NCBI GenBank assembly: GCA_963815115.1
Contig: CAWFFN010000007.1
Coordinates: 832,001-896,000 of the forward strand
Source of the DNA: an uncultured delta proteobacterium
GTDB taxonomy: Bacteria > Desulfobacterota > Binatia > DP-6
Direction: 5' to 3'
DNA length: 64,000 bases
Position 1 is the stretch's first letter. Each line of letters starts with the position of its first letter. The position numbers and the translations under genes were made by a program. The notes beneath the pieces are model-generated. The model was not told the DNA's origin. It worked only from the letters and a program-made list of their open reading frames with translations, and did no database searches. Positions 28,391 to 50,554 of the stretch are shown here, piece by piece.

Positions 28391-28414
28391 GGCGCCACGC
28401 CGGGGGGCGCCGCC

Positions 28415-28996
28415 CTACCGAGCGTACTTGACGGAGCAGCCGTACGGCTTGGTCTCGGCGACCTTCACCGGCTTTCCGGACGTGACGTCGTCGAGCGCCT
28501 CGGCGACGTAGTTGCGCGCCTCCTTGCCCTTGTCACCCGCCGCGTCGTCGTCGATCGCGCCCTCGTAGACCACCGTGCCCGTGCCGTCGATCACGAACAT
28601 GTGCGGCGTCGTCTTGGCGCCGTACGCGGTGCCGACCTTGCCCGCATGATCGTCGAGCACCGGATATGGCAGCTTGTGCTCGCTTCGCCACGCCTGGTCG
28701 CGCGCCGAGTCCAGGTAGCTCGTGCTGTCGACGCCGAGCCAGATCACGCCACGGTCACGATACCGGTCGGCCAGCGTCCGCATCGTATTCGCGTTGGCAT
28801 GCCGTTGCGCGAAGGGGCAGTCGGGGTTGGTCCACTCGAGGACCACGATCTTGCCGCGCAGCTTGGCGAGATCGACCTCGGCACCGTCCTGGTCCTTCAG
28901 GCTGAAGCCCGGGGCCGCCTGCCCCACCACGGCGCTGGCATGCGCCACCGCCGCCGTGGCGAGCACGACCGCCGCCAGCGTGGTTCCGAATCGCAT
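28415..28996 (-). CDS. Periplasmic thioredoxin-fold/peroxiredoxin-like protein
   Basis: Signal peptide, VVLEWTNPDCPF, YGAKTTPHMFVID, YEGAIDD, PYGCSVKY. Confidence 0.88.
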   Translation of the reverse strand: MRFGTTLAAVVLATAAVAHASAVVGQAAPGFSLKDQDGAEVDLAKLRGKIVVLEWTNPDCPFAQRHANANTMRTLADRYRDRGVIWLGVDSTSYLDSARDQAWRSEHKLPYPVLDDHAGKVGTAYGAKTTPHMFVIDGTGTVVYEGAIDDDAAGDKGKEARNYVAEALDDVTSGKPVKVAETKPYGCSVKYAR

Positions 28997-28999
28997 CGT

Positions 29000-29845
29000 C
29001 TAGGTCTCCTTTCCGTCCAGTGAGATCGGCACGCGGATGCCGCGCCGCATGCCCCCGGCATCCGTGTACGCAACCACGCTGTCGAGCGGCGCGCTCTCGG
29101 TCTCCTCGCCCGCGAGTCGCTTCGCACGGAACGTGAGCTGCGTACGGCTCCCGTCGGTCCGGCTCCGTGCCTCTTCGACGTCCAGGGCCGGATCGCTCGG
29201 CGGAAACCACTCCACCGCGCGGGGCGCTTCCTTCCAGTCGAGGGTCACCGTGACGGTCCCGATCCCTCCGTCACGCGGCACGCCCCCGCGCGCCGCCAGC
29301 GCGACCGGAGCGGACCCGGCCTCGGCGTCGACCGGCAGCTTCTTCGCCCAGTCCTCGAACAGGGCCGCGTCCGCGGCACCATCCTTCCCGCCCGCAGGGG
29401 GGCCGACGCTGAGCTCGAGCGTCTTCTTGCCGCGGAGACAGAGCTTCTCGCAGGCGAGCCAGCCGGCATCGGCACGCAGCGCGACGGGCGCGCCCTGCGC
29501 CAGCGTCGCGGGCGGCGTCACCGTGGCCGAGAGCAGCAGCGTGTCGTCGTAGCCGTATCCCACGACCCCACCGGGCTGATCGAACCGCTCGGGCACCGGC
29601 CAGCGCAGCGGACCGGAGGTGAATCCTTCGGGAAGGATCCAGCGAACCGACGTCGGCAGGCCGGCATCGCCGGGGTTGTGCCAGTAGACGTGCCAGCCGC
29701 GCTGAATGTGGAAGAGCACGCCGAGCAGGAAGGGCTTCCCCGCTTCGACGTGCGCGGTGCTCACGACCAGCCGGGGTTCGACCGGCTGGAAGTACTGTGC
29801 GTGCGCCGTCCGCGAGACGATCAGGGCCAGCAGCAACCACCTCAT
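29000..29845 (-). CDS. Stand-alone DsbD/ScsB N-terminal (alpha) domain protein
   Basis: GWHVYWHNPGDAGLP, WPVPERF, WLACEKLC. Confidence 0.85.
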   Translation of the reverse strand: MRWLLLALIVSRTAHAQYFQPVEPRLVVSTAHVEAGKPFLLGVLFHIQRGWHVYWHNPGDAGLPTSVRWILPEGFTSGPLRWPVPERFDQPGGVVGYGYDDTLLLSATVTPPATLAQGAPVALRADAGWLACEKLCLRGKKTLELSVGPPAGGKDGAADAALFEDWAKKLPVDAEAGSAPVALAARGGVPRDGGIGTVTVTLDWKEAPRAVEWFPPSDPALDVEEARSRTDGSRTQLTFRAKRLAGEETESAPLDSVVAYTDAGGMRRGIRVPISLDGKET

Positions 29846-29909
29846 CCGCTCTTCTTCTGCTGCCGCATGCCACCCGACTCAACCCCGCCCGGCGACCGCG
29901 GGTGTCCCG

Positions 29910-33881: not shown

Positions 33882-34063
33882 ATGCGGCTCGGCGTGATCG
33901 TGGTCCTCGCCGCGTTGGTCGGGATCGCACGCGCAACGAGGCCGCGCGGGTGACGCGTCACGGCGCCGCGACGTTCGCCGGCGTCTGGTACGATTCCCCA
34001 CGCTCGGCCGGCGAGCGCCGCGGAACCAGCGATCGCTTCGTGCTCGCGTTCGTGAAGCCCTGA
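33882..34063 (+). pseudogene. Internally deleted remnant, probably of a secreted methyltransferase
   Basis: Signal-like MRLGVIVVLAALVGIA ends at an early stop; the C-terminal RGTSDRFVLAFVKP* resembles COG4798-type ends. Confidence 0.45.
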
Positions 34064-34087
34064 TCGAGCCGCCGAGCACCCCCGCCG

Positions 34088-34801
34088 TCAGCCCATCGCC
34101 TCGCGCCAGCGGCTCGGCGGTACCCCGAAGCGCCGGGCAAAGACCCGGCTGAAGTACGCCGGCTCGGAGAAGCCCGCCGCCAGCGCGGCTTCCTTCACGG
34201 ACGTCCCGCTGCGCAGCAGGCCGATGGCGCGTTCGAGCTGCATCCGCCGCCGCAAGGCGGTGAACCGCTCGCCCGTCGTGCGCCGCACGAGCGTCGAGCA
34301 GTGGCTCGGGCTGTAGCCGAGGCGCCGCGCCAGATCTGCCAGCCGCACGCCCTCGTGCAGGTGCTCGGCGACGTACACCGGCACCTCCGGCAGTGCCGGG
34401 CGTTCTGTTCCGCGACGCTTGCCGGCGGCGACTTCGCGAAGCACGTCGCGGAGCCGTGCGGAGACGTCTGCGGGAGTCCGGAACGGAGCGTGGAGCAAGT
34501 CGGCGGCGGCGCGTTCCAGCAGCGTGCGCACGTCCGGGGCGAGCCCCGGCCCGGGCGCGATGTGTGCGACGTCGAGCAGGATCGCCCCTCGCCGTGCCGC
34601 GCTGGTCCCGTCGCCCTCCTGCTCGACCATGGCCGCCGCGAGTGCCGCGGCGGCGAGGACGTCCTCCGCAGACGACCCGCGCACCGCCTCCGCCAGCCGG
34701 CGCGCGACGACACGGCACCAGTGGCGGCGAGGGTCGCCGGCCACACGCGCCGCTGCGGGCGAAGAAAGTCCATGCGAACCAAGGGCCGGTGCATTGCGCA
34801 T
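34088..34801 (-). CDS. AraC-family transcriptional regulator
   Basis: LADLARRLGYSPSH..., SVKEAALAAGFSEPAYFSRVF.RRFGVPP. Confidence 0.88.
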   Translation of the reverse strand: MRNAPALGSHGLSSPAAARVAGDPRRHWCRVVARRLAEAVRGSSAEDVLAAAALAAAMVEQEGDGTSAARRGAILLDVAHIAPGPGLAPDVRTLLERAAADLLHAPFRTPADVSARLRDVLREVAAGKRRGTERPALPEVPVYVAEHLHEGVRLADLARRLGYSPSHCSTLVRRTTGERFTALRRRMQLERAIGLLRSGTSVKEAALAAGFSEPAYFSRVFARRFGVPPSRWREAMG

Positions 34802-34814
34802 CCCGGTCCAATAA

Positions 34815-34829
34815 TGAAAATGACTTTCA
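34815..34829. promoter_or_regulatory. Putative Fur box
   Basis: TGAAAAT-G-ACTTTCA matches the 7-1-7 consensus TGATAAT-N-ATTATCA at 11 of 14 positions; AT-rich patch heading an iron/heme uptake operon. Confidence 0.75.
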
Positions 34830-34851
34830 CTTTCAAGGAGGAGATCAAGGG

Positions 34852-35283
34852 ATGGACGTGATGGCTGCCGACGACGGGACCCGCGCCGCGGCGTTGATGC
34901 GCGACGCGGCCGGCCTGGGGCAGGTGCGAGTGCTGCTGCGCACCTGCAGCAGCTTCATGGAGCTCTTCTGCGACGCCGGCTCCCTCGAGGTCGTCGACGG
35001 CTGGCTGACGATCCGGCGTCCGGCCGCTCATCTGCACGTGGAGCTACGGGCGCTGCGCGGCGCCTGCCTGCTCGAGGCGGGCGGCGATGCCTACCCGCAC
35101 GCGCCCTCGCTCTGGCTGGTCGGCCGCTGCGGAAGCCCCTCGGTGATCGTCATTCTCGACGCGACTCTCGGCGACGAACGCCAGCAGCAGGCGGCCGCGT
35201 TCCGGCTACTGCGCGACCGCTGGGGCGAGCGCGTCGGCTTCGAGACGCTGGCCGTGAGCTCCGATGAGCGGGTTCTCCACTGA
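34852..35283 (+). CDS. ChuX/HutX/HemS-fold heme-utilisation protein
   Basis: AGGAGG RBS; GQVRVLL...ME, GWLTI...HLH, SLWLV..G, Q...F..L..RW pattern. Confidence 0.65.
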   Translation: MDVMAADDGTRAAALMRDAAGLGQVRVLLRTCSSFMELFCDAGSLEVVDGWLTIRRPAAHLHVELRALRGACLLEAGGDAYPHAPSLWLVGRCGSPSVIVILDATLGDERQQQAAAFRLLRDRWGERVGFETLAVSSDERVLH

Positions 35284-35446
35284 CGCCCACCGCGCCCCCG
35301 TCGGAGGCCGCGAGTCCGGCCGACGGCGTCCGTGGCCCACCGGCCGTCGAATGGAACCCCATCCTGCACCGAGGCCCGAGACGTCAGTCCAGAGCCTGTC
35401 CCACCAGTCCGCCGCTCCGAGCGGCCCCATCCCAAGGAGGGCTCTG

Positions 35447-36583
35447 ATGAGACGACACATGCGACTCGGCCGCACCCTCGGCATCGGTCTCGTTCTCGCG
35501 TCTGCCATGGCGGTCCACGCCGAGACCATCGTTCTCGACGGCAGCACGGGCGCCGCCTACGATTCGGTCGGCGACGGCTGGTTCTTCGCCGGCACCACGC
35601 CGCCCCTCCCGGCGCCCGATGGCATCGGAGACGCGGGCGGCCAGGCTCTCGCCGTCGGCCTCATCACCGGCGTGCTCGAGCTCCGTGCCATGGCCGAGTT
35701 TCCGCTCGCCCCGCTCGGCGGCCTGAGCGCGGGACAGATCCAGAGCGCCACGCTGCGCTTCACGATCGACGACGTGATCAGCACCTTCGGCCCTGGTGCC
35801 ACGTTCGACAGCACCGCCTCCGACCCGATCGCCGTGTACCACTACCCGGCCGACGGCATCGTCACGGTCGGCGACTTCTCGCCCGCGGGCGCCACCCAGG
35901 TGGGCGTCGTCCATCCCGGTGCGGTCACCGATGCGACGCTCGCCGGCACGGGCGCCCTGCCCTTCGACGTCGACGTGACGGCCGCGCTCCGGGATGCCCT
36001 CACCGACGGCGATACCGCGTTCGGCGCGCTCTTCGGGACCACCGACTCGCCGACGGGAACGTCGCTCGACAACCTCGCCCCGCCGGGCGTGCCGGGCGGG
36101 GCCCTGCCCATCCTCACCGTCGTCACTGAGCCGCTCCAGCCTCCCGTCCTCACGAGCGCGGCGCAGGCGTGTCAGACCACGATCGCCAAGGCCGGCCAGA
36201 AGCTGGTCGGAACGGCGCTCAAGTCGTTCAGCACGTGCTTCGCGCTCGTCCTGAAGGACTTCGCCCCCGACTCGACCCTGGCGCCGACCACGGCGCCGAA
36301 GTGTGCCGGCGCGCTCGACCCGGGCAGCGCGGACTCGAAGCTCGGCAAGGCGCTCGCGAAGCTCGTGGCCGACATCGAGAAGAAGTGCGAGGGCGTGACG
36401 CCTGCGGACATCGGCAGCCCGTGCGATCCCTCCGCGCCGACGATCGCGCAGACCGCCACGTGCGTGCGTGATGGCCAGCTCGCCCTGAGCGAGGCGCTGG
36501 TCGCGCAACAGTATGCTTCCGGCTGCACGTTGCTGTCCGCCGTGGGCCTGGATGCGGCGTTCCCGGGCATCTGCACGCCCTGA
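35447..36583 (+). CDS. Secreted protein A of the heme operon (unrecognised N-domain plus Cys-rich helical C-domain)
   Basis: AAGGAGG RBS, signal peptide, N-domain paralogous to the next gene. Confidence 0.8.
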   Translation: MRRHMRLGRTLGIGLVLASAMAVHAETIVLDGSTGAAYDSVGDGWFFAGTTPPLPAPDGIGDAGGQALAVGLITGVLELRAMAEFPLAPLGGLSAGQIQSATLRFTIDDVISTFGPGATFDSTASDPIAVYHYPADGIVTVGDFSPAGATQVGVVHPGAVTDATLAGTGALPFDVDVTAALRDALTDGDTAFGALFGTTDSPTGTSLDNLAPPGVPGGALPILTVVTEPLQPPVLTSAAQACQTTIAKAGQKLVGTALKSFSTCFALVLKDFAPDSTLAPTTAPKCAGALDPGSADSKLGKALAKLVADIEKKCEGVTPADIGSPCDPSAPTIAQTATCVRDGQLALSEALVAQQYASGCTLLSAVGLDAAFPGICTP

Positions 36584-36684
36584 GGCCGGCTCGGCCGGCG
36601 GCTCCGACCCGGAGTTCTCCCCCGAATGTCTCTCGCGAGGGGCCGCCGGCCGACCACCACGTGCTTCGATTGCAGGAGATTCCG

Positions 36685-38424
36685 ATGCGTCGCCTCGCCA
36701 CCGCGCTCGTCCTCGCGACCGCCCTTCCGGCGGCCGCGCTCGCATCCACCGTCACCATCGACAACACCACTCCTGGCGCGGTCTGGGACGGCATCGTCGA
36801 GGGCTTCCCCGGCCTGTCCGGCCGAATCGGCGGCAATCCCCTGTCGGTGGTGCGGCGCGGCGAGACGCTCCAGCTCCGCTCGGTGATGGAGTTCCCACTC
36901 GTCTCGCTGGCGGGGATCACCCCGGAGTCGATCGTATCGGCGACGCTCACGTTCAACATCGACGACGTGCTGTCGACCCTCGGCCCGGGCACCGAGCTCA
37001 GCGGCGAAGGCGCGGACACCATCCTGGTCCACTTCTACCCCGGGGATGGCGAGGCGCTGCTGGCCGACTTCGGACGCACCGAGGAGCCTGCGGTATCCGT
37101 CGACACGGGTCCGGGCACCATCACCGATGCCACCCTGACGGCTTCGGGACCGGTCGTGCTGACGGTCGACGCCCGCCCGCGTCTGCTCCAGGCGCTCGCC
37201 GCGGGCACGCCCTTTCTCGGCGTCCTCTGGCGTACCAACGACAACCAGACGGGCACCTCACTCGATGACGGACGCGGCGGCTCCGCCTCCGGCACGCCGA
37301 GCAACACCGTGCCCGGCTCCCGCATGCCCTTCCTCACCATCGAGGTGGGCGACACGGCGCCGTCCAGCTGCGGCAACGGCCGGCTCGATACCGGCGAGCA
37401 GTGCGACGACGGCAACCGCGCCGACGGCGACTGCTGCAGCCGGCTGTGTGCATTCGAGCCGCCGGGCGCCACGTGCAACGATGCGAATGCCTGTACGACA
37501 GGCGACGCGTGCAACGGCGCCGGTGCCTGCATCGCCGCGCGGCCGCTGGCCTGCGACGACGGCAACGATTGCACCGCCGACTCGTGCGACCCGGCCACCG
37601 GCTGCGTTCACGGCGTCACCAACGAAGGCGCGCGCTGCGACGACCGGAATCCGTGCACCACCGACGAGATGTGCACGGCCGGACGGTGTGTCGGGGTCGC
37701 CGTCGAGGGATCGTGCGACGACGGCAACCCGTGCACGGGTGGCGATGTCTGCGCGGCCGGCGCCTGCCAGGGCGCGCCGGTCGACGGCACCCCGTGCGAC
37801 GACGGCAAGGCGTGCACTGGGCACGACACGTGCCGGGCCGGAGGCTGTCTCGGGACACCGCTGTGCGGCGACGGTCACCTCGATGCGAGCTGCGGCGAGG
37901 AGTGCGACGACGGCAACACGACCGGAACCGACGGCTGCTCGTCCGAGTGCCGCTACGACACCCTGGTGGGCGGCACGGCGCCGACCGAATGTCTCGTCCG
38001 GATCGCGTTCGGAGCACCGCAGCGCGACCCCGGGGGCGCGATCGCCGCGGAGCAGGCCTGCACCGACGGCGACCCGACGTGCGACACCGATCCCGCCGAT
38101 GGCGTCTGCGGATTCGTCGTCGCGGGTTGCTTCGGCGTGCCCGATCCACGCCTGCCAGGGTGTGGCCCCGCCCCCAACGTCAAGGCGCGCATCATGCAGC
38201 CGGCCGGCGGGGCCGCCGCCCGCTCCACCCGGCGGCTGCTCGTGTCCGCGTTGCGGGCCAGCACCATGCCGGGTTGCACGCAGCCCACCACCGCCACGGT
38301 GGCGGTGCGGCGCCGGGGTAGCAAGCTCCAGCCCGGGAAGACCGCACTCGTCCTCGGCGCCCGGGCGGCCGGCGTGGGCCGGGATCGCGACACGATCCGG
38401 CTCGTCTGCCGGCCGGGGCCGTGA
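36685..38424 (+). CDS. Secreted protein B (same N-domain plus Myxococcus/DUF4215-type Cys-rich repeats)
   Basis: Signal peptide; CGNG.LD.GEQCDDGN and CDDGNxCTxDxC repeats. Confidence 0.8.
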   Translation: MRRLATALVLATALPAAALASTVTIDNTTPGAVWDGIVEGFPGLSGRIGGNPLSVVRRGETLQLRSVMEFPLVSLAGITPESIVSATLTFNIDDVLSTLGPGTELSGEGADTILVHFYPGDGEALLADFGRTEEPAVSVDTGPGTITDATLTASGPVVLTVDARPRLLQALAAGTPFLGVLWRTNDNQTGTSLDDGRGGSASGTPSNTVPGSRMPFLTIEVGDTAPSSCGNGRLDTGEQCDDGNRADGDCCSRLCAFEPPGATCNDANACTTGDACNGAGACIAARPLACDDGNDCTADSCDPATGCVHGVTNEGARCDDRNPCTTDEMCTAGRCVGVAVEGSCDDGNPCTGGDVCAAGACQGAPVDGTPCDDGKACTGHDTCRAGGCLGTPLCGDGHLDASCGEECDDGNTTGTDGCSSECRYDTLVGGTAPTECLVRIAFGAPQRDPGGAIAAEQACTDGDPTCDTDPADGVCGFVVAGCFGVPDPRLPGCGPAPNVKARIMQPAGGAAARSTRRLLVSALRASTMPGCTQPTTATVAVRRRGSKLQPGKTALVLGARAAGVGRDRDTIRLVCRPGP

Positions 38425-40532
38425 GGAGAGGTGTCACCACCCTGCTCGCCGTGCTGGCACTCATCGGAAGCCCCGCGAGGGCCGAGGACCATGCGGCCGT
38501 CGCCCAGGATCGCACCGGCCCCGTGGCCCCGACGCTCGCGGCGGCCGAGGCCGTTCCGCTCGACGAGATCGTGGTGACCGGCAGCAAGTCCGAGTCGCGC
38601 GCCTGGGACTCGACCGTACCCACCCAGGTGATCCCCGAGGAGGTGATCCGCGAGACCACGACCATCGACGTGCAGAACGTGCTGGGAGAGGTCCCCGGCC
38701 TCTATGTCCGCCGCAACGAGCAGTTCGCCCTCGGCGCCAGCACCGTCGCATGCAGGGGCTGGACGCCAACAAGGTGGCCATCCTGATCGACGGGCGGCGG
38801 TTTCGCGGCGGGATCGACGGCGTGGTCGACCTGCGTGACATCCCGGCCAACAACATCGAGCGCGTCGAGATCATCCGCGGACCCGCGTCGAGCCTCTATG
38901 GCAGCGACGCGATGGCAGGCGTGATCAACTTCATCACCAAGCAGGGAACACCCGAGCCGCGTGGCGAGCTGGCGATCGCGGGAGGCGACTTCGCGCGCCG
39001 CTTCATCGCCGGCAGCCAGGGGTGGCAGGTGGGACCGGTGCGCTACTTCCTCTCCGGCATCCACGACGAGTTCCGGCCCTTCGAGCAGTTCGGCGCCATC
39101 AGCGAGCAGTTCACCGGACCGCGACGGACCGAGACCCAGGCTCGCAACCAGGTGAACCTCCGGCTCGACTGGGACGTCGGCCAGCGCCACGCCTTCACGC
39201 TCTTTCCATCGTACCAGGAGCAGGACAATCCCGACAGCCAGAACCGCAATATCGTGTTCGGCGGCGAGTGGCGCTGGAGGACGACGCAGAGCTCGGAGCT
39301 CGTCACCTGGCTCAATCGCTACAACTTCACCCGCTCGAACGACCTCCCCGGATTCGAGGAGTCCTCCGACTACGTCGACTGGGAGACCGAGTCGCGCTGG
39401 AGCACGGAGCTCGGCCCGTGGCTCGCCTGGCCGAGCCACCGCCTGACGATCGGGATGCGCGGCCGCGAGCAGGTCCTGGACCAGGGCTCCGTCGAGCTCC
39501 AGGGCAACGAGGGTCCGATCAGGACCCCGGCCGTGAACGCGTCCATCTGGCAGGTGAGCCCGTTCCTCCAGACGGACATCCTCTTCGACGAGCACTGGAG
39601 CCTGCTGGTCGGCTCGAGCTTCGACGTCCACCAGGTCTACGGTCTCGACGTGAATCCCCGTGCCACGCTGACCTGGCGGCCGAGCGATCTGCTGCGCGTC
39701 TCCGCCACGGTGGGCCGCGGCTTCCGCGCGCCCGACCTCGTGCAGCTCTTCGGGGTCGACGTCAACTTCGGCGGGCTCTACGCGCTGCTCGGCAATCCCG
39801 ACCTGCGGCCCGAGACGGATCTCGCCTTCCAGCTCGAAACCCAGTTCCGCTACCGTGGCGTCGACGCCTTCCTGGTGCTCTTCCGCCACCAGTTCGACGA
39901 TCTCATCGCGTTTCAGCAGCTTCGCCTGTGCAACCGACCGGGCGTGCCGCCCGGGTGCGTGCAGGATCCCCTGCCCCAGCTTCCCGGGCCGCCTCCGCTT
40001 CCAGACCCAGAACGTCTCCAAGGCGTTGACCCAGGGAGTGGAGCTCGGCATCGACGTCGCACCGCTCGATCTCCTCGGGTTCGACACCCCGCACCAGCCC
40101 TCGATCGGGATCGGGTACGTCTATCTCGACAGCCGGGACGAGAGCGGCATCCCGGGCGAGGATGGCAACGAGCTGCCCTTCCGGCCGCGCAACCGGGTCC
40201 TGCCGACGTTCGGCTACCGCCACAAGGGAACGGGCTTCACGCTGCGCGTCTGGGGCGAGTACGAGTCCGACACGTTCACGACGATCGCGAACGATCCCAT
40301 CGACGTGGCGCGCAAGCACTGGCTGTGGAACTTCAAGATCCAGTTCGCGCCGCTGCGGATGCTGCCGGAGGACTTCGGCGGACGGCTGGCGACCGCGATC
40401 GACGTCGGCCGCCACCTCGAGTTCTTCATCGAGGGCGACAACGTGTTCGACCAGGAGTTCGGCCCGCTCACCGCCGCCGGACGGCTCGCGGGACCCGCGG
40501 CATACGTGTTCGGCGTGTCCGCCAGGTTCTGA
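38421..40532 (+). CDS. TonB-dependent receptor (likely heme) with two compensating frameshifts (~38747, ~39975-39988)
   Basis: DEIVVTG TonB box, IERVEIIRGPASSLYGSDAMAGVIN plug, FRAP and GNPDLRPE motifs, C-terminal Phe; three segments across two frames. Confidence 0.88.
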
Positions 40533-40554
40533 TCACCGCCCACGAGGAGAACGT

Positions 40555-41484
40555 ATGACGCACCGAGAGTTCACGCCCGAGGCCCGGCATCGCCGACCTC
40601 CTCACCCGGCTGCCGGGGGGTGCGGAGGTGTGCCCGTGATGGCGTTGCTCCTGCTGGTGGTCCCCCTGGTCGCCGGCACGGGGTTGGCCGCCGAGCCGGT
40701 GCGGGTCGCGACGCTGCTGCCCTACGTCGAGGATGCACTCGTCCAAACCGGGGGTGTCGAGATCGTCGCCACCGTGCGCCGCGATCTCGCGACCGCGCCG
40801 GCGCCTCCGATCGTCGATCTCGGCAGCCCGCACGCACCGAGCTTCGAGAAGCTGGCCGAGGCGCGACCGCAGGTGATCGTGGGCGATCGGCAGCTGCACG
40901 GCGCCCTGCGCGACAAGCTCGCACGCAGCGGCGCGGAGGTGGTGCTGGTCGGGTCGGATACGGTGGATGCCACCTTCGACGGTCTGGTCGAGGTCGGGCG
41001 CCGCTGTGGCATCGAGGCGCCGATGGCGGCGCAGGTGGACAGGGCACGACGCGCTCTCGCCGGCCTGACGCTCCCCCAGCGCACGCCGGCCCTGGTCATC
41101 TTCGGCACGCCGGGGTCGTTCCTGATCGTGTCGAGCCGGACGTGGCTCGGCGACCTGGTGTCCCGGCTCAACTTCGACAACGTCGGCGCTGCCGCCAGCG
41201 GCGAGGAGCGTCACCCGGGCTTCGTCCAGCTGAGCGACGAAGTGCTCGCCGGCCTGCGCCCCGAGCTGGTGCTCATGGTCGCGCACGGCGACCCGGAGGC
41301 CATCCGGGCAGCTTTCACCAAGCGCCTCGACGCCGGCGGTCCGTGGGCCGGCATGCGCGCCGCCGCCGTGCATGGCGTGCACGTCCTCGCGCCGGCGCTC
41401 TTCAGTCAGAATCCGGGGCTCGCCCTGCCGGAGGCGGCGAGGCACCTGCACGACCTCGGTATCGCCCGCGCGAGCGCCCGGTGA
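40555..41484 (+). CDS. Heme ABC transporter substrate-binding protein, IsdE-like
   Basis: LGSPHAPSFEKL, FGTPGSFL...WLGDLV, P.LVLMVAHGDPE pattern. Confidence 0.8.
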   Translation: MTHREFTPEARHRRPPHPAAGGCGGVPVMALLLLVVPLVAGTGLAAEPVRVATLLPYVEDALVQTGGVEIVATVRRDLATAPAPPIVDLGSPHAPSFEKLAEARPQVIVGDRQLHGALRDKLARSGAEVVLVGSDTVDATFDGLVEVGRRCGIEAPMAAQVDRARRALAGLTLPQRTPALVIFGTPGSFLIVSSRTWLGDLVSRLNFDNVGAAASGEERHPGFVQLSDEVLAGLRPELVLMVAHGDPEAIRAAFTKRLDAGGPWAGMRAAAVHGVHVLAPALFSQNPGLALPEAARHLHDLGIARASAR

Positions 41485-42503
41485 CGCGATCCCTCGCCAC
41501 GGGCCGACTCCTCTTCGAACGCCTGCGCGCCCGACCGGGATTCTGGGCCGGCGTCCTGACCCTGCTGCTCGCCGCCGCGGCGGTCCTCGGCAGCGTGCTC
41601 GGTGCGGCGCGAATCCCTCTCGCCGAGATTCCACGCGCGCTGACCGACCCGGCGCATCCTGTACATACCGTCCTCTGGAGCGTCCGGCTGCCGCGCGTGG
41701 CGGCCGGGATCCTCGTCGGAGGCGCGCTCGGCGTCGCGGGCGCGCTCCTGCAGGCCGTCGTGCGTAATCCGATCGCCGATCCCGGCATCCTGGGCGTGAC
41801 CGCGGGAGCCGGACTCGGCGGTCTGCTCGCCATCTGCCTCTGGCCCGAGCACCCCTTCCTCGTGCCGGCGCTCGCGTTCCTCGGCGGGCTCGGCGCGGTG
41901 GCGGCGCTGCTGACCGCCGCCTGGGGCGGCGGCCGGATCGCCGGGCCACTGCGCATCGTCCTGTCCGGCGTCGCCATCCAGACGATTCTCTTCTCGCTGA
42001 TCGCCCTCGTCACCTTCTTCTTCGCCGATCGCGCCCCGGCGTTCGTGTCGTTCACGATCGGCTCGCTCAACGGTCTCGGCTGGCGGGACGCCGCGCTGAT
42101 CCTCGGTCCCGTGGTCGCCGGCACCGCCCTCGCGCTCGCCTCCACGCGCGCGCTGAACCTCCTGCTCCTCGACGACGACAGCGCCGCGGGCGTCGGCCTC
42201 TCCGTGCGTCGCTCGCGCATCGCCGCATCCTGTCTGGCCGTGTTGCTCGCCGCGGCGGCGGCGAGCGTCGCCGGGCTGGTGGGCTTCGTCGGCCTCGTCG
42301 TCCCGAACTGGGTGCGCGTCCTCGTGGGTCCCGACCACCGCGTCCTCCTGCCGCTCTGCCTGCTGGCAGGGGCCGCGCTCCTCGTGCTGGCCGACACCGC
42401 GGCGCGCACCGTCGCAGCGCCGCTCGAGCTGCCCGTGGGCGCGCTGCTCGCCCTCGTCGGCGGACCGTACTTCCTCTTCGTCCTGTGGCGAACGCTCGCA
42501 TGA
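41481..42503 (+). CDS. FecCD/HmuU-family ABC permease
   Basis: VRLPRV, RNPIADPGILGV, GFVGLVVP, ADT.ART..P.ELPVG. Confidence 0.93.
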   Translation: MTRSLATGRLLFERLRARPGFWAGVLTLLLAAAAVLGSVLGAARIPLAEIPRALTDPAHPVHTVLWSVRLPRVAAGILVGGALGVAGALLQAVVRNPIADPGILGVTAGAGLGGLLAICLWPEHPFLVPALAFLGGLGAVAALLTAAWGGGRIAGPLRIVLSGVAIQTILFSLIALVTFFFADRAPAFVSFTIGSLNGLGWRDAALILGPVVAGTALALASTRALNLLLLDDDSAAGVGLSVRRSRIAASCLAVLLAAAAASVAGLVGFVGLVVPNWVRVLVGPDHRVLLPLCLLAGAALLVLADTAARTVAAPLELPVGALLALVGGPYFLFVLWRTLA

Positions 42504-43309
42504 CGACGACCCCGGCGCTGCGCCTGCGCGCCGTGCACGTGCGCCATCCCACCGCCGACCGCGACGCATTGCGCGACCTCGCGCTCGGGGTGCGCCGGGG
42601 GGAGATCCTCGCGCTGGTGGGTCCCAACGGCTCCGGCAAGTCGACGGCGCTGGCCACCATGGGACGCTCGCTGCTCCCCAGGCTCGGATGCGTCGATCTC
42701 GACGAGAGCGCCGCCGCCGCGCTCTCCGCCCGCGCCTTCGCCCGCCGGGTCGCACGGCTGCCACAGACTCCGATCTGTCCCGAGGGCATCACCGTCAGCG
42801 AGCTGGTCCGGGGAGGCCGGCATGCGTATCGCCGGTTCCTCGAGCCACTCGGGGACACCGATCTTGCCGCCGTCCGCGAGGCGATGCGCGCGGTGGACAT
42901 GATCGACCTGCGCCATCGTCGCATGGAGACGCTCTCGGGCGGCGAGCGCCGGCGCGCGTGGCTCGCCATGGTCCTCTGCCAGGAGGCGCCGATCCTCCTG
43001 CTGGACGAGCCCACGAGCGCACTCGATCTGCGCCACCAGAGCGAGCTGCTCGCGCTGCTCCGGCGCCTGGGTGACGAGCGTCGCGTCACCATCGTGGCCG
43101 TGCTCCACGACCTCGAGCAGGCGGCCTGGCTCGCCGACCGCGTCGCCGTGCTGCACCGCGGTCGGCTCTACGCCGCCGGGGCCCCCGCCGACGCCATCCG
43201 GGAGGACACGCTGCGTGACGTCTTCGGCGTCGAGGCGCGCATCACGCCCGACGCCGACGGCCTGGCCATCCGCATCCTCGGGCCGCGTGACCCGCTGCGC
43301 TTTCTCTAG
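42500..43309 (+). CDS. Iron-chelate ABC transporter ATPase
   Basis: GPNGSGKS, LSGGERRR, LLDEPT, VLHDL. Confidence 0.93.
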   Translation: MTTTPALRLRAVHVRHPTADRDALRDLALGVRRGEILALVGPNGSGKSTALATMGRSLLPRLGCVDLDESAAAALSARAFARRVARLPQTPICPEGITVSELVRGGRHAYRRFLEPLGDTDLAAVREAMRAVDMIDLRHRRMETLSGGERRRAWLAMVLCQEAPILLLDEPTSALDLRHQSELLALLRRLGDERRVTIVAVLHDLEQAAWLADRVAVLHRGRLYAAGAPADAIREDTLRDVFGVEARITPDADGLAIRILGPRDPLRFL

Positions 43310-43318
43310 GAGGACCAC

Positions 43319-43957
43319 ATGTTCGGGAAGACGATTCTCTCGGGCGACCGCCCCCTGCCCGCCGAGTTCCTCGAATGGCAGGTGAAGCTCCGGCACTGGA
43401 CCATGCTTGCACGCCATGGATCGCCGCACGCCGGCGTCGCTCCGCTCTGCTGCGTGCGGCAGCCCGGGCTCGGTCCCGGCGTCAGCATGCACTCGATCAT
43501 CTGTGGGCTCCTGCCACGCGCCGACGGTCTCTCCACCAAGACGCGCGACTTCCGCGCGCTCTACGAGGACAACGCCGAGAACGGTGCGCGCGCGGTCTAC
43601 GACGCGGGGATCGAGTACCTGAAGGGCTACTACGCGACGGCCGCCGAGTTCGACCCCAGCACCATCACGTCCCTGCTGCCTCGCGACGCCATGGTGGTGC
43701 GGGCGCTGCGCGCGAATCCGTCGTGCGCGCTCCTGTTCTACGTCTTCGACCTCGACGACCGTTCCGAGGAGGGCCGCTTCCGCTGCCTCCAGCTGAACTG
43801 CCGGACCGAGCTCCACGAGGACGGGCCGCTGTTCGACAACGTGTGGTGGCACAACGCCGTCTTCCACGGCAAGCTGGACGACCAGGTGATGGTTCGCTTC
43901 GTCCACCAGAGCACGTACGACACGGGCTTCGGCGGACTCGACGCGATCGACGCGTGA
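43319..43957 (+). CDS. Hypothetical protein, possible FMN-binding split-barrel fold
   Basis: AGGAGG RBS overlapping the ATPase stop; LRANPSCALLF...LQLNCRTEL resembles PNPOx-like proteins. Confidence 0.65.
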   Translation: MFGKTILSGDRPLPAEFLEWQVKLRHWTMLARHGSPHAGVAPLCCVRQPGLGPGVSMHSIICGLLPRADGLSTKTRDFRALYEDNAENGARAVYDAGIEYLKGYYATAAEFDPSTITSLLPRDAMVVRALRANPSCALLFYVFDLDDRSEEGRFRCLQLNCRTELHEDGPLFDNVWWHNAVFHGKLDDQVMVRFVHQSTYDTGFGGLDAIDA

Positions 43958-43996
43958 TGACGGAGGTTCGCGGCGGCCCGGCGGAGTCGCGAGGAC

Positions 43997-44470
43997 CTAC
44001 GCCGCCAGGGCTTCGTTGACCGCCTGCCGCAGCTTGCGGTCGTCGGGTGCGACGTTGCTCGGGAAGAACCCCCGCACCTCGCCGTCCTTGCCGACGAGGT
44101 ACTTGCAGAAGTTCCAGTTCGGTACGTCGCCCGACCGTGTGAGGAAGGCGTAGACCGGCGACTGTCCGGGGCCGGGCTTCGTCTCGCCCTTGGCGAACAT
44201 CGGGAAGCTCACGCCGTAGTTGCGCTGGCAGAAGGTCTGTATCTGCTCCGCGGAGCCCGGCTCCTGGCCGCCGAACTCGTTGCTCGGGAAGCCGAGGACG
44301 GCGAAGCCCTCGCCGTCCAGCTCGTCCTGCAGCTTCTGCAGGCCGGTGTACTGCGGCGTGAACCCGCACTCGCTGGCGACGTTCACCACCAGCGTGACCT
44401 TGCCGCGGAACTCCCCCAGGTCGGCCGGGCGCCCGTCCAGTCGCTGCGTCTTCAGATCGTAGAGGCCCAT
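43997..44470 (-). CDS. Glutathione peroxidase family protein
   Basis: VVNVASECGFTPQY, LGFPSNEFGGQEPG, PNWNFCKYLV. Confidence 0.94.
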   Translation of the reverse strand: MGLYDLKTQRLDGRPADLGEFRGKVTLVVNVASECGFTPQYTGLQKLQDELDGEGFAVLGFPSNEFGGQEPGSAEQIQTFCQRNYGVSFPMFAKGETKPGPGQSPVYAFLTRSGDVPNWNFCKYLVGKDGEVRGFFPSNVAPDDRKLRQAVNEALAA

Positions 44471-44694
44471 GCCGCCTCTATCGCCCGCTTCCTCGACCCG
44501 CGGCAAGCCCCCACGGACCGTGCGGCCGACGCCACGTAGTCGCGACTCGTCAACGATTTTCGCGGATTGACACGTTGGCGGTGGTTGGTGGCGTCTCTCA
44601 AAAGAGCACGACCTGCCCCTCGTCTCCACGCCAAGGCACCACGCATCCCCCCGAGAGAATCATGAATGAAGACTGTCCCGACACCACCCCGGTC

Positions 44695-46404
44695 ATGAAA
44701 CCCGCCCTTCCGCGCCTGACCATGTGCGCCCTCGCAGTCGCCATGGGACTGGCTGCTTCGTGCCCCGCATGGGCCGATCCGGCCGTCTCCCTCCTCCCGC
44801 GGCTGCCGGTCTGCGGAGACCAGGACCAGTCGTCGACCCAGCTCGAGTGCACCGACTTCGTACCGATTCCGGACATCGAGGTCTTCCGGGTCCCGGGCCA
44901 GGGCCCTACGGATCTGACCTTCGACTTCGTCTTCTCCGAAGCCAGCGTTCCCAATGAGCTCGGCGTCTTCCGGCTCGACGACCTGAACGGCAGGGTGGGA
45001 GACCTGAGCCCTGCCGAGCCGGGCTACCTCTCCGCCGCGCTCGCGCGTGCGCAGACCCTGTTTCCCTCCGGGTCCGATGCTTTCGTCGCCGACAAGACGA
45101 TCCGCGTGAGCGGAGGCGATCTGCTGGTGTTCTTCATCGTCCACGGCGGCACGCTCGCGAGCCTGCAGGCCACGAACCCGACGAACGACGTCACCAAGCT
45201 CCCGGTCGCCTACTTCTCGCTCACTCGTCTCAATCCCGATCCGGGCTCGCTCTACGGCGGCGATCATCTCATCGGCTTCCGGAGTCTGTCGCCTCAGCTC
45301 ACGGAGTTCGCCTTCGAGGACCTCAGCCAGTTCAGCGACTGGGACTTCGACGACGTCGTCTATACCGTCTCGGCGCGCCTCGAGCGTCCCGCCTGCGACG
45401 GACCGGACGGTGACGCCGACGGCGTCCCCGACGCCTGCGACGACTGCCCGTCGGTCGTGAATCCGGACCAGCGAGACGGCGATGGCGATCTCGTCGGTGA
45501 TGCGTGCGACGATTGCGCGGGCGTCCCCAACCTCGCACAGGGCGACTCCGACGGCGACGGGCGCGGCGACGCCTGCAGCTTCGAGGTCTGCGGCGACGGG
45601 CGCGACAACGACGGCAACGGGCTCACCGACGCGGCCGATCCGGGTTGCCCCTCCCTTCGCATCGAGAAGCTCTCCCAGCCGGCTCGCGGAGCGAGGATCG
45701 GCGGGATGGTCAAGGTGAAGGGACGCGGGTTCGGCGACGTGCAAGGGACCCTCGAGCTCGGCACCCAGGACGTCTCCGTCGAGCGATGGCGCGACAAGCG
45801 GGTCACCTTCGCCGTGCCCCCGCTCGGCGGCGGGCTCTACCTCGTTCGCGTGCTTCGCGGCCAGGACCGCAGCGAGCGCGAAGCGCTCTTCGTTCCGGGC
45901 GTGCCCATCGGAACCAAGAAGCAGACCCTCAAGGCGCTGGGCGACGTCTACGGCGGAACCTCGTGGTGGACCTACTACGACAGCGTGGCGCGGCACAGCA
46001 TCAAGCTCGCGAACCCCTTCTGGCTGCAAGCGGCGCTGCTGGGGTCCACGCCGGACGAGCGGGATCTCATCGTCGCCACCGCCACCTCGATCGACGCGAC
46101 CACCTACGGGCCCTCGAACCGCGCGCGCCGCGACACGGCACGCGCACTCGACGTCTGCGAGGAGCAGTACCTGAGGCAGATGCCCGACGCCGTCCTCGAC
46201 CAGTACCTCGCCTGTGCGGGGTATCCCGGTCCCAAGAAGCGGTTCCGCGCACTGCCCGCGGACGTGCAGCTCGCGATGCTCAACCGGGGCCGCCCCGGGC
46301 CCGGGAAATCGTGCTTCGTCGGGTCGGCGCACCAGGATGCGTGTCGTGACGCGCTCCGGACCGGCGCCGTCGGCGACGCAACGCTCGCCACGCTGGGCTT
46401 CTAA
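44695..46404 (+). CDS. Secreted multidomain protein (DUF4114-like, TSP3 repeats, IPT/TIG-like, unknown C-terminus)
   Basis: NELGVF, LNPD..DH, FAFEDL..DWDFDDVV; DGDADGVPDACDDCP repeats; VKVKGRGFG. Confidence 0.75.
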   Translation: MKPALPRLTMCALAVAMGLAASCPAWADPAVSLLPRLPVCGDQDQSSTQLECTDFVPIPDIEVFRVPGQGPTDLTFDFVFSEASVPNELGVFRLDDLNGRVGDLSPAEPGYLSAALARAQTLFPSGSDAFVADKTIRVSGGDLLVFFIVHGGTLASLQATNPTNDVTKLPVAYFSLTRLNPDPGSLYGGDHLIGFRSLSPQLTEFAFEDLSQFSDWDFDDVVYTVSARLERPACDGPDGDADGVPDACDDCPSVVNPDQRDGDGDLVGDACDDCAGVPNLAQGDSDGDGRGDACSFEVCGDGRDNDGNGLTDAADPGCPSLRIEKLSQPARGARIGGMVKVKGRGFGDVQGTLELGTQDVSVERWRDKRVTFAVPPLGGGLYLVRVLRGQDRSEREALFVPGVPIGTKKQTLKALGDVYGGTSWWTYYDSVARHSIKLANPFWLQAALLGSTPDERDLIVATATSIDATTYGPSNRARRDTARALDVCEEQYLRQMPDAVLDQYLACAGYPGPKKRFRALPADVQLAMLNRGRPGPGKSCFVGSAHQDACRDALRTGAVGDATLATLGF

Positions 46405-46476
46405 GCGGTCTGCCGTTCCCAGCCGGCGACACCGGGACGTTCCGGAAACTGCGGTCGGGGCATAGAATGCGGCAGC

Positions 46477-47058
46477 ATGCTGACGCTCTACTTCGCGCCC
46501 GGGTCCAGCTCGATGGCGCCGCACGTCGCGCTGCATGAGATCGGCGTGCCGTTCGACGCCCGGCCGCTGTCGTTCGCCCGGATGGAGCACCGCGCCCCCG
46601 CGTTCCTCGCACTCAATCCCGAGGGCAAGGTCCCGACGCTGGTGATCGACGGCCGGCCTCTCACCGAGGTGGCCGGCATCCTGTTCTACCTCGCGCGACG
46701 CTATCCCGACGCCGATCTGCTGCCGCGCGACGATCCGGAGGCGGAGGCTCGCGTCGTCTCGTGGATGTCCTTCATCGCCTCGACCGTCCACCCCGCACGG
46801 CGCCAGGGCCTCGAGTATGCCAGCCGGATCTACGCCATGGCCGACCGCCGTCTCGGCCGCAACGAATGGGCAGTGGAGCGCTACTCGATCGCCGACATCC
46901 ACCTGTTCCGGCTCTTCTGGCGCTTCCGCGGCGCGTTCAAGCCCGAGGCCGATGCGTTTCCGAACCTCGAGGCGCACCACCGGCGCATGATGGCACGGGC
47001 TGCGGTCAAGCGAACGTGCGACATCGAGGCCGCGATCGGCTACGAGCTGCCCGCGTAG
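46477..47058 (+). CDS. Glutathione S-transferase family protein
   Basis: LYFAPGSSS, LNPEGKVPTL, LTEVAGIL.YL, YSIADIHL. Confidence 0.92.
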   Translation: MLTLYFAPGSSSMAPHVALHEIGVPFDARPLSFARMEHRAPAFLALNPEGKVPTLVIDGRPLTEVAGILFYLARRYPDADLLPRDDPEAEARVVSWMSFIASTVHPARRQGLEYASRIYAMADRRLGRNEWAVERYSIADIHLFRLFWRFRGAFKPEADAFPNLEAHHRRMMARAAVKRTCDIEAAIGYELPA

Positions 47059-47061
47059 GCG

Positions 47062-48141
47062 TCACGGCGCAGCGCTGACGGCGCGGGCCCTCGCGTCGGG
47101 CGACCCCGCAGGTCGGTCATGTGCACGCGCCCGCAACGTCGGCAGCACCGCGGGCAGCAGGTTGTGTACGAAGCGCCGCGCGCCACGCAAGCTCAGGTGA
47201 CACGGATCGTTGAACCAGTGCGCGTCGCCCCCGAGCCGGGCAGCCTGATCGACGAAGCGCGCCGACGGGTGCTCGCGCGCCACACCGCGGATCACGGCGT
47301 TGTGCACCTCTACCGCGTGCCGGACCTGCCGCGGATCGCCCCACATCTCGAGCGGCGCCAGGTGCAGGCCGTAGCCGAGTCCCGCTTCCTTGAAGCGAGC
47401 AAGGGAGTAGTCGTCCGGGATCCACATGGCGAAGGTCATGAGCAGCACGGGCTCTCCACGGCTGGTCGCGCGCTCGAGGATCGCGCGCAGATTGGCCTCG
47501 AGCGGGCCGGCGGTACGGACCGTGTCCCCGTAGTGGAGCCAGTCGGCACGTGGTCCGTTGCGGGGAACGTAGCGCGACGAGAGCAGGACCTGACGTAGCC
47601 GCAGGGCCACGTACTCCAGCGTGTAGGGCAACGCGAACCGTGCCCGACCCTGATGTGCCGCCAGCGCGTTCACGATCTCGTACCATCCGTAGTGTCCGTA
47701 GTCGTCACGGAACAGCTCCGGAGGCACGTTGTTCGCGCGCGCCTCGTTGATGCCGTCGTACACCACCACCAGGTCGAAGCGCTCCGCCCCGATGGCCTCG
47801 TAGGCGAGGCGGCTGTCGCGCGACGTCAGGCCCGGAGCGGCGAGATTGAAGATGCGCACGTCACGGTGGCCGGCGTATGCGAGCTGCTCGCGCAGCTCCG
47901 CCTGCACCGTGCCCCAGTGCGGATGGAGGGTCGACCCCCCGAGCAGGAGCACGTGCATTCGCCCGGCCGCCCATTTGGGATAGTGCGCGTCGATCCTGGC
48001 GAGCCCGGGATAGAACGCCTGGAGCACGCGCTCGGGATGAGTGAACGGGACGCCACGCGCTCGCCAGAACAGGCGGGCGCCGACCTCGAGCGACGCCAGG
48101 CAGAGAAGGACGAATGCCAGCGATCGGATGGCCCGCGACAC
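47062..48141 (-). CDS. Membrane-anchored SGNH/GDSL hydrolase-like protein
   Basis: N-terminal TM LEVGARL, LLGGST, YDGINE, FNDPCHL. Confidence 0.75.
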   Translation of the reverse strand: MSRAIRSLAFVLLCLASLEVGARLFWRARGVPFTHPERVLQAFYPGLARIDAHYPKWAAGRMHVLLLGGSTLHPHWGTVQAELREQLAYAGHRDVRIFNLAAPGLTSRDSRLAYEAIGAERFDLVVVYDGINEARANNVPPELFRDDYGHYGWYEIVNALAAHQGRARFALPYTLEYVALRLRQVLLSSRYVPRNGPRADWLHYGDTVRTAGPLEANLRAILERATSRGEPVLLMTFAMWIPDDYSLARFKEAGLGYGLHLAPLEMWGDPRQVRHAVEVHNAVIRGVAREHPSARFVDQAARLGGDAHWFNDPCHLSLRGARRFVHNLLPAVLPTLRARAHDRPAGSPDARARAVSAAP

Positions 48142-48227
48142 GAGTCCGGGATACGTAGCCGACCCCGTCGCGGCGGCGCAATGGCACGCTGCGACACCGG
48201 GGTCCCCGGCCCGCCACGCCGGGGATG

Positions 48228-49802: not shown

Positions 49803-49912
49803 CCTGTGGCACGTCTACCACCACGCTGCTCTCGGCGACAAATGTGTTCAGCAGGCTCGCGGCCGGGAGCGGTTGCTTCCGAAACGCGGGCAACTATGAA
49901 TAGTCGGGCAGG

Positions 49913-50554
49913 ATGTTGCGCCTCCCGGGCCTGATGGGACCAATCCGCCGGCGCTCTGCGATCCTCACCCTCGCGACGGTCGCAGCGCTCGTCGTTCTCG
50001 GGCTCGCGCGCGACCCGCCGGCCACTGTCGCGGCGGACGCAGCCAAGGAACCGGGCGCCCAGGCGACCACGGAGACCGCGATCCTCGCCGGTGGATGCTT
50101 CTGGGGCATGGAGGAGATTCTGCGCAAGATCCCGGGCGTGATCTCCACCCAGGCCGGCTACACCGGCGGCTCGACGGCGAATCCGACCTACCAGGACGTC
50201 CACACGGGCAGCACCGGTCATGCCGAGGCGGTACGCGTCGTGTTTGATCCCGCCACACTGTCGTACGAGGATCTGCTCGAGAAGTGGTACTTCCGCATGC
50301 ACGATCCAACCACGAAGAATCGACAGGGCAACGACATCGGCACGCAGTACCGCTCGGCGATCTTCGTCACCTCCGAGAGGCAGCGCGAGATCGCCGAGCA
50401 GGTGAAGAAGCGTGTGGACGCTGGCGGGAAGTGGCACGCACCGGTCGTGACCGAGATCGTCGCGGCCGGCACGTTCACACCGGCGGAGGAGTATCACCAG
50501 AAGTACCTGCAGAAGAATCCCGGCGGGTACACGTGTCACTACATGCGGGACTAG
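49913..50554 (+). CDS. msrA: Peptide methionine sulfoxide reductase A (exported)
   Basis: AGGCFWGME, GYTGG, GHAEAV, RQGND.G.QYRS, AEEYHQKYL; hydrophobic N-terminus. Confidence 0.95.
   Translation: MLRLPGLMGPIRRRSAILTLATVAALVVLGLARDPPATVAADAAKEPGAQATTETAILAGGCFWGMEEILRKIPGVISTQAGYTGGSTANPTYQDVHTGSTGHAEAVRVVFDPATLSYEDLLEKWYFRMHDPTTKNRQGNDIGTQYRSAIFVTSERQREIAEQVKKRVDAGGKWHAPVVTEIVAAGTFTPAEEYHQKYLQKNPGGYTCHYMRD

Follow-up and report, generated by a model that had tools for sequence, protein, structure and literature searches.

A predicted heme-acquisition operon with CBM96-like secreted proteins in an uncultured Binatia bacterium

The gene cluster and its gene models

We analysed a 64,000-nucleotide stretch of DNA, hereafter the window, from an uncultured delta-proteobacterium of the Binatia (GenBank assembly GCA_963815115.1, contig CAWFFN010000007.1, positions 832,001 to 896,000 of the forward strand), in which a gene for an AraC-family regulator diverges from a cluster of eight co-oriented genes that an initial annotation had described as a Fur-regulated heme-acquisition operon of hybrid design. 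The divergent regulator and the number and order of the eight genes proved to be as described there (Table 1): a HutX-like protein, two secreted proteins (A and B), a TonB-dependent receptor (TBDR), a periplasmic substrate-binding protein (SBP), an ABC permease, an ABC ATPase and a split-barrel protein. The GTG start of the TBDR overlaps the stop codon of B (4-nt overlap), a 22-nt gap separates the TBDR from the SBP, the SBP and permease genes overlap by 4 nt and those of the permease and ATPase by 19 nt, and 9 nt lie between the ATPase and split-barrel genes; a convergent glutathione peroxidase gene marks the end of the cluster. It was also correctly noted that the window contains no TonB, ExbB/D or heme-oxygenase Pfam domain, as judged from a scan of its 53 other open reading frames (ORFs). 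An Rfam scan of the whole window returned 0 matches, hence no cobalamin or other riboswitch, and a promoter and terminator scan of positions 34000-44600 was uninformative (0 promoter-like sites; 3 terminator-like sites vs 2.3 expected).

The window is ~70% GC throughout, and long ORFs are frequent in many frames. Genes were called from the GC content of the three codon phases (GC3), stop-to-stop translations and Pfam and NCBIfam scans. Judged by GC3 phase and by orthologues, secreted protein B and the receptor had both been wrongly delimited in the initial annotation. An ORF at 36513-37268 was rejected as a coding gene, having no coding signal in its GC3 phase, and a 1097-aa ORF at 37265-40558 was rejected as the receptor, being a high-GC read-through that is open only through base composition. 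The practical lesson is that the longest ORF misled the gene model because the DNA is 70% GC; automated annotation of the locus would be wrong, since the longest ORF misleads and the receptor is frameshifted.

Table 1. Features of the cluster, in window coordinates.
Feature	Position	Strand	Basis
AraC-family regulator, 237 aa, divergent from operon	34088..34801	-	Pfam HTH_18 E=1.5e-21, HTH_AraC E=1.5e-13, C-terminal
15-bp 7-1-7 palindrome TGAAAATGACTTTCA, Fur-family operator candidate	34815..34829		sole window match
HutX/ChuX-like small cytoplasmic protein, 143 aa	34852..35283	+	PF06228 below cut-off
Secreted protein A, 378 aa	35447..36583	+	jelly-roll domain, no Pfam/NCBIfam match
Secreted protein B, 579 aa	36685..38424	+	GC3 phase and orthologue alignment
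TBDR, ~703 aa if contiguous, two frameshifts	38421..40532	+	Plug/barrel Pfam pieces, tblastn
Frameshift 1, one base missing vs orthologues (..S T V / R M Q G..)	38747..38748	+	sequence vs orthologue proteins
Frameshift 2, one extra base within gggc (..L P G / R L R F Q..), back to frame a	39986..39989	+	sequence vs orthologue proteins
IsdE/Lmo2184-like periplasmic SBP, 309 aa	40555..41484	+	Peripla_BP_2 E=3.4e-14
FecCD-family ABC permease, 340 aa	41481..42503	+	PF01032 E=3.7e-81
ABC ATPase, 274 aa	42485..43309	+	ABC_tran E=2.7e-26
PNPOx-like split-barrel protein, 212 aa	43319..43957	+	PNPOx_N E=9e-4 (sub-threshold), fold model

A scan of one genome per species yielded 19 related loci (given L numbers below), which are labelled Binatia, Deltaproteobacteria or Thermodesulfobacteriota and were compared by tblastn with the window proteins; GC3-based calling picked some shadow ORFs in them, and only ORFs with Pfam matches were used. 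The closest relatives of the operon are Candidatus Binatia genomes. The three closest loci (L001, L002 and L006) show the full window order followed, after the split-barrel gene, by a third A-like paralogue that is absent from the window, and it is only in these three that the HutX-like and AraC genes recur, the AraC gene again placed as in the window. In 15 of the 19 loci, which are all 15 that could be evaluated, an orthologous TBDR has between one and three A-like genes as immediate neighbours, the contigs of the other four (L005, L011, L014, L019) ending less than 1 kb from the last A-like gene. The linkage of the secreted genes to such operons elsewhere, which the initial annotation had made a test of its reading, is therefore observed. 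An IsdE-like SBP is found in 8 loci, with the split-barrel gene in seven of these and the eighth cut by a contig end, and an HmuT-type SBP follows the A and TBDR module in seven more distant loci (L007-L010, L012, L016 and L017), that is in 7 of 15. The description of the locus as a hybrid was accordingly overstated, as in related loci the same receptor is paired with an HmuT-like ABC module in place of the IsdE-like one. TonB_C genes occur at L003 16513-17379, between receptor and SBP, and at L010 19187-19915, a FeoB gene lies beside the third A-like gene of L018 (9506-11620), and L017 carries an HTTM and imelysin pair (16252-18555); the window has none of these.

The receptor gene is interrupted in the window. 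Homology to receptors starts at 38421 in frame a, shifts to frame b at ~38747 and returns to frame a at ~39989, continuing to 40532. The Pfam matches are divided likewise (Plug 4-55 in frame a, Plug 49-107 and barrel 50-271 in frame b, barrel 314-421 in frame a), so that the plug and 22-strand barrel of a generic TonB-dependent receptor are split over two frames instead of being found in one ORF, and five intact orthologous receptors align by tblastn as three collinear pieces in frames 3, 2 and 3. After the first frameshift, frame a meets a stop at 38784-38786, and the two indels are 1.24 kb apart. No frame change is seen in the receptor of any of the 14 related loci that carry the gene complete, and the alignments of the remaining seven operon genes of the window with their orthologues stay in one frame; beyond the operon, frame integrity was judged only by full-length Pfam coverage of large housekeeping genes (Lon, UvrB, UvrC, ComEC and others). 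Since all three receptor segments retain a strong third-position GC signal, and the two large pieces are 58-66% identical to the closest orthologue, comparable to the neighbouring genes, the broken receptor would be either a recent pseudogene or the product of assembly errors at two bases. Two indels within one gene are suggestive of real decay but do not prove it.

Importer, receptor and cytoplasmic proteins

The SBP had been called IsdE-like, and the comparisons uphold this. A profile of its family matches, among PDB sequences, Lmo2184 (E=1.8e-27), IsdE (1.3e-19) and Staphylococcus aureus HtsA (6.8e-14), with PhuT and BtuF near 1e-3 (BtuF ~6e-4); in bit scores IsdE and Lmo2184 stand at 73.6-99.5 vs 23.2 for PhuT. 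The best NCBIfam model is the IsdE equivalog (TIGR03659) at 70.3 bits, which does not reach its cut-off of 298.65. HMMER aligns a His of the SBP with each of IsdE chain positions 49 and 200, and both His are invariant in all eight family members. One common offset of 29 converts these positions to Met78 and His229, which we take to be the heme ligands of IsdE from the title of a paper on IsdE M78A;H229A and a passage on Met79/His229 of streptococcal HtsA, a literature search on IsdE Met78/His229 as ligands having found nothing; the equivalent of His229 is kept, and the Met78 position is occupied by His.

Similarity to HmuT, ShuT and PhuT, which the low PhuT score fails to indicate for the window SBP, is found for the SBPs of the seven related loci mentioned above. 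The L007 protein matches the hemin-binding proteins BhuT (5.5e-55), HmuT (1.5e-52), ShuT (3e-42), HutB (1.1e-38) and PhuT (1.4e-37), and BtuF only at ~1e-9. The evidence from this swapped-in HmuT-type SBP is independent of the argument from the IsdE ligands, and the strongest indication of heme is that two unrelated importer modules, each apparently of heme type, would serve one receptor family. Our results suggest that the region is probably a heme (iron-porphyrin) acquisition and utilisation operon under a Fur-family repressor. What stands of the original proposal is a metal-regulated TonB/ABC uptake locus with heme as its best-supported substrate; what does not stand is a receptor of heme type, and the receptor gene is frameshifted.

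Several observations weigh against this reading, the first of which concern the receptor. All of its NCBIfam scores are far under the family cut-offs: the intact L001 receptor reaches 123.5 bits with TIGR01785 (TonB-hemin; cut-off 316.85) and 105.9 with TIGR01786 (cut-off 323.75), and the top model for the intact orthologue is TonB-B12 at 144.6 bits. Against PDB sequences the receptor scores 143 bits with CirA and 112 with BtuB vs 62 with PhuR and 50 with ShuA. Heme receptors generally carry a conserved His between their FRAP and NPNL boxes; inspection of the window receptor and of the 14-orthologue consensus revealed FRAP and NPDL with no His between them. His391 and His477 (L001 numbering) are invariant in this receptor family. 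By these comparisons the receptor is predicted to lie outside the classical heme-receptor clade, and a grouping with heme receptors is not borne out. With the receptor broken in this sequence, the operon may be non-functional in this organism. For the cytoplasmic proteins, PF06228 matches the HutX-like protein with E=1.1e-4 and 22.5 bits, under the gathering score of 25, and PNPOx_N matches the split-barrel protein with 20 bits, under the cut-off of 28.1 (five of eight orthologues match). The fold matches of the latter are mostly flavin or F420 proteins, and sequence searches of the PDB with it, single or as an 8-sequence profile, gave chance-level matches only, with no HutZ or HugZ. For the secreted proteins, no hemophore is among the listed Foldseek PDB matches of A, the nearest folds being carbohydrate-binding modules (CBMs), and their jelly-roll domain has no His, Tyr, Met or Cys that is invariant across the paralogues. 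Finally, the consensus of the operator sites equals a footprinted Zur consensus, as discussed below.

Some of these features would be expected if the cluster imported another metal chelate, such as a catecholate-type siderophore, a corrinoid or another tetrapyrrole, and the HutX-like and split-barrel proteins had unrelated roles. The proximity of the receptor to CirA and BtuB and its top TonB-B12 model are consistent with this, as are the best NCBIfam scores of the permease and ATPase, obtained with FhuB/BtuC/FecD and FecE models (for the ATPase, FecE 236.7 bits and heme ABC ATPase 215.4 bits, both sub-cut-off), the naming of the third SBP match, HtsA, as a ferrichrome ABC transporter lipoprotein, and the flavin or F420 binding of most split-barrel neighbours. 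However, the two unrelated SBP families that accompany the same receptor family are both heme-type, BtuF is a weak match to either, the window has no cobalamin riboswitch, and the receptor falls under every family cut-off, so that its assignment is weak either way; import of another chelate is therefore considered unlikely. The initial annotation had named clustering with B12 or siderophore transporters as evidence to the contrary, and this is seen in part, the receptor being nearest CirA and BtuB while the SBP is IsdE-type with only weak similarity to BtuF.

Heme also remains the substrate that the two cytoplasmic proteins may be read to suggest. PF06228 matches all four HutX-like orthologues (best E=2.6e-5), again below the gathering score, and a 40-sequence profile of the family finds PDB entry 3fm2, described as 'distantly related to heme binding/degrading HemS', with E=0.0015 over nearly the full length; single-sequence and 4-sequence searches of the PDB gave nothing meaningful. 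This points to a remote relative of the ChuX_HutX family rather than a member of it; the 56 relatives of the protein are all unnamed. The AF2 model of the split-barrel protein (pLDDT 91.9; PNPOx-like Atlas score 0.91) has 55 Foldseek matches in the PDB at E≤0.001, of which those listed are split-barrel proteins; heme or haem is named in 8 of 39 listed rows, and HugZ is at rank 35. The protein, whose 256 relatives are likewise all unnamed, is on the strength of this model a candidate heme-binding or heme-degrading protein. In Vibrio cholerae, HutX hands heme to the split-barrel enzyme HutZ within the Fur-regulated hutWXZ operon, according to PMC12670364. The parallel is suggestive, both matches being remote. 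The two original assignments thus hold at the level of remote or fold-level likeness and not at that of sequence scores, which are sub-threshold.

Operator and secreted proteins

The palindrome in front of the operon lies 23 nt before the start codon of the HutX-like gene, within the 50 bp that separate this gene from the AraC gene, and is the only match in the 64-kb window to TGAAAATNATTTTCA at up to three mismatches, where 0.03 were expected (100 shuffles). The two best 19-mer matches to the Fur consensus in the window (14/19) are at 34810 and 34816, and the next best elsewhere is 12/19. Of the 19 related loci, 16 have a palindrome that agrees with TGAAAATNATTTTCA at 11 or more of 14 positions, and there is one stray match elsewhere. 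The distance from the palindrome to the first cluster gene downstream is at most ~500 nt in 13 of these loci and ~800 nt in the other three. These last sites lie upstream of the first A-like gene (L016 201, L017 6654 and L019 4107). The consensus of the sites is TGAAAATGATTTTCA, which L005 and L014 carry exactly.

A candidate Fur-type operator is thus present at the promoter, with a consensus that equals the predicted delta-proteobacterial Fur box and is also a Zur consensus. For delta-proteobacteria, PMC545781 predicts a 17-bp Fur box in front of feoAB and fur with the consensus WTGAAAATNATTTTCAW, from which the predicted Zur sites differ. TGAAAATGATTTTCA is, on the other hand, letter-for-letter equal to the 7-1-7 consensus footprinted for Streptomyces coelicolor Zur, as quoted from PMC2823685, and a table in PMC4298942 lists predicted mycobacterial Zur sites that are similar to it. 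The Fur-type box originally proposed is therefore real and AT-rich, but its identity as a site for Fur only is not secured, as a Zur consensus fits equally. Were the palindrome a Zur operator, the cluster would form part of a zinc-starvation response, with the receptor taking up, for example, a zinc chelate or a zinc-loaded protein, and the abundance of invariant Asp in A and B would be in keeping with this. However, WTGAAAATNATTTTCAW was derived for Fur of delta-proteobacteria, whose Zur sites differ, and the importer is of the FecCD/Peripla_BP_2 chelate type with heme-type SBPs, not of the ZnuABC type. We consider a zinc response very unlikely, and Fur is favoured over Zur as the cognate repressor because of the taxonomic labels of the related loci (Binatia, Deltaproteobacteria or Thermodesulfobacteriota) and because FeoB adjoins the cluster in L018.

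A and B are predicted to be exported proteins that are tightly linked to the receptor. Both have a cleavable signal peptide with no lipobox, judged by inspection, and they share a domain of ~200 residues with 37-38% identity. In A (AF2 model, pLDDT 92), the signal peptide is followed by a CBM96-like jelly roll (~27-227) and a helical bundle (~237-376) with 8 invariant Cys; in B, which aligns in a single frame over residues 6-577 with its L001 and L002 orthologues, the paralogous jelly roll is followed by cysteine-rich repeats, and B matches TIGR02232 (E=1.4e-13), DUF4215 and Dicty_CTDC. A has no Pfam or NCBIfam match, and neither protein matches CBM96 (PF24517) in Pfam at E≤0.01. Foldseek nevertheless places A closest, among PDB entries, to a chondroitin-sulfate-binding CBM (8wab, E=1.6e-7, TM 0.65 on target) and an alginate-binding CBM (7vbo), followed by TGF-beta prodomains, Eph ligand-binding domains and MAM domains, and the Atlas score of A for CBM96 is 0.94. 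Of 8000 scored candidates, 133 are related to A at E≤0.001, and no source gives any of them a name; two close ones, from metagenome contigs, are 82-87% identical to A. The 120 listed carry no precomputed Pfam domain, and the named source organisms are Candidatus Binatia and unclassified metagenome-assembled genomes. Built from 24 copies of the domain common to A and B, in which many Asp are invariant, a profile matched 109 representatives at E≤0.001 out of 1.84 billion, 41 of them at 1e-30, with a weak tail of CBM96, PEP-CTERM, dockerin, cadherin and MAM proteins.

The jelly-roll family appears to be modular, with varied C-terminal modules. A jelly roll is joined to a dockerin at L010 13253-14260, and the third paralogues of the closest loci (L001 14778-15398, L002 18117-18740, L006 10001-10624) have a Thr-rich linker and a helical tail. 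A complex prediction for the L001 receptor (42-690) with L001 A (23-373) scored 0.00 vs a mark of 0.32 and counts neither way. Elsewhere in the window, a cysteine-rich, secreted-looking ORF at 27422-28390 (+) has a sub-cut-off Disintegrin-like match (E=1.5e-7), and its repeats resemble the cysteine-rich part of B (tblastn E=2e-4).

The folds nearest to A, which bind chondroitin sulfate and alginate, together with remote relatives that carry CBM96, dockerin, PEP-CTERM, cadherin and MAM modules and with paralogues that lack a common conserved metal-ligand residue, would be compatible with A and B being extracellular polysaccharide-binding or adhesion proteins that merely share the promoter of the transporter. 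This is rather doubtful given that one to three paralogues stand immediately beside the receptor in every evaluable locus, with either ABC module, that the family is so small among the sequences searched, and that in 16 of 19 loci the Fur-type box precedes the first paralogue or the hutX-like gene. It is possible, and we put this forward tentatively, that A, B and the third paralogue of related genomes belong to a previously undescribed class of extracellular proteins that capture heme and are coupled to a receptor. Their common element would be the CBM96-like jelly roll, combined with exchangeable C-terminal modules, and they would feed a CirA/BtuB-like receptor that has become heme-specific independently of the classical heme receptors, forming a hemophore system specific to Binatia-type soil bacteria. 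A literature search on hemophores with CBM96 found nothing.

Proposed mechanism, known systems and significance

In a heme-acquisition operon of this kind, metal limitation would release the repressor from the palindrome at 34815-34829, and the genes from hutX-like to split-barrel would be transcribed as one unit. A and B, to judge from their conserved gene order, may act as accessories of the receptor by capturing the source of heme or handing it over to the receptor. The receptor would move the ligand across the outer membrane with a TonB system encoded elsewhere, and the SBP, for which homology to IsdE is evident, would hold the ligand, presumably heme, between its two His before passing it to the FecCD permease and ATPase importer. 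In the cytoplasm, the HutX-like and split-barrel proteins, to judge from weak homology and from fold, could handle or degrade heme such that iron is freed.

The arrangement resembles HmuRSTUV, ShuA-ShuTUV and PhuR-PhuTUV in combining a TBDR, a Peripla_BP_2 SBP, a FecCD permease and an ATPase under a Fur-type operator, the more so in the seven related loci with a true HmuT-type SBP. It differs from them in that the window receptor is outside the heme-receptor family and the window SBP is IsdE-like, in the lack of a protein of HemS/ChuS size or a canonical heme oxygenase in the window, and in the addition of two or three secreted jelly-roll proteins. IsdE of the S. aureus IsdE-IsdF system and Listeria Lmo2184 provide the nearest SBP sequences, and residues that could ligate a metal occupy both axial positions in the window SBP; however, it scores far below the IsdE cut-off, has His at the Met78 position and is found in a Gram-negative setting, where an outer-membrane receptor is present and NEAT proteins and sortase are absent. 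V. cholerae HutWXZ likewise has a small ChuX/HutX-like protein and a split-barrel protein in one Fur-type operon, but both matches are remote here (PF06228 sub-cut-off, no HutZ or HugZ sequence match, HugZ only at fold rank 35) and there is no HutW-type radical SAM gene.

Known hemophore-receptor pairs include HasA-HasR, HmuY-HmuR and HphA-HphR. The position of the secreted-protein genes, directly upstream of the receptor gene and predicted to be co-transcribed with it, is analogous to that in such pairs, whereas the listed fold matches include no hemophore (HasA, HmuY, HphA or NEAT), a conserved axial-ligand residue is lacking, and several paralogues with differing C-terminal modules are present. 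With CBM96 (PF24517; 8wab, 7vbo) the secreted proteins share the jelly-roll fold and remote profile links. They differ in giving no Pfam match at the threshold stated above, in their context, which is a metal-uptake operon and not a polysaccharide lyase, and in the fusion of the domain to a disulfide-rich helical bundle or cysteine-rich repeats.

The operon is flanked by thiol and oxidative-stress genes (24924-29878 and 43997-50554), which encode a PDZ and thioredoxin-like protein, AhpC/TSA, DsbD_N, glutathione peroxidase, glutathione S-transferase and MsrA. Past the operon, a 668-aa ORF at 44398-46404 (+) has a DUF4114 domain and a weak thrombospondin type 3 repeat match, with no similarity to A or B. 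Further away are an extracytoplasmic function (ECF) sigma factor with an adjoining zf-HC2 anti-sigma gene at 16906-18369 (-), a second ORF with sigma-70 regions 2 and 4 at 54698-55630, and a DUF1800/DUF1501 gene pair at 55785-58729 (+). The Pfam match of the DUF1501 gene (57300-58729) covers only profile positions 239-339; a frameshift in this gene was considered and rejected, as its GC3 phase is constant throughout.

Heme piracy has been worked out mostly in pathogens. Literature searches found nothing on a heme/TonB uptake system of this kind in Binatia, and those on TonB-dependent iron uptake in Binatota returned only work on biosynthetic clusters. Taken together, the locus combines a recognisable heme-uptake logic with three unusual features, namely a non-classical receptor, an IsdE-like SBP with two His that is replaced by an HmuT-like one in relatives, and a lineage-restricted family of CBM96-like secreted proteins at the place where hemophores are encoded. 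If the assignment is correct, it would give Binatia and their kin, an uncultured lineage that is dominant in soil, a recognisable pathway of heme uptake, in which a small secreted family that no source has named is the constant partner of one receptor family whichever inner-membrane importer is used. If A and B do capture heme, they would represent a new hemophore architecture, and the receptor would be a case of heme specificity that has arisen outside the classical clade.

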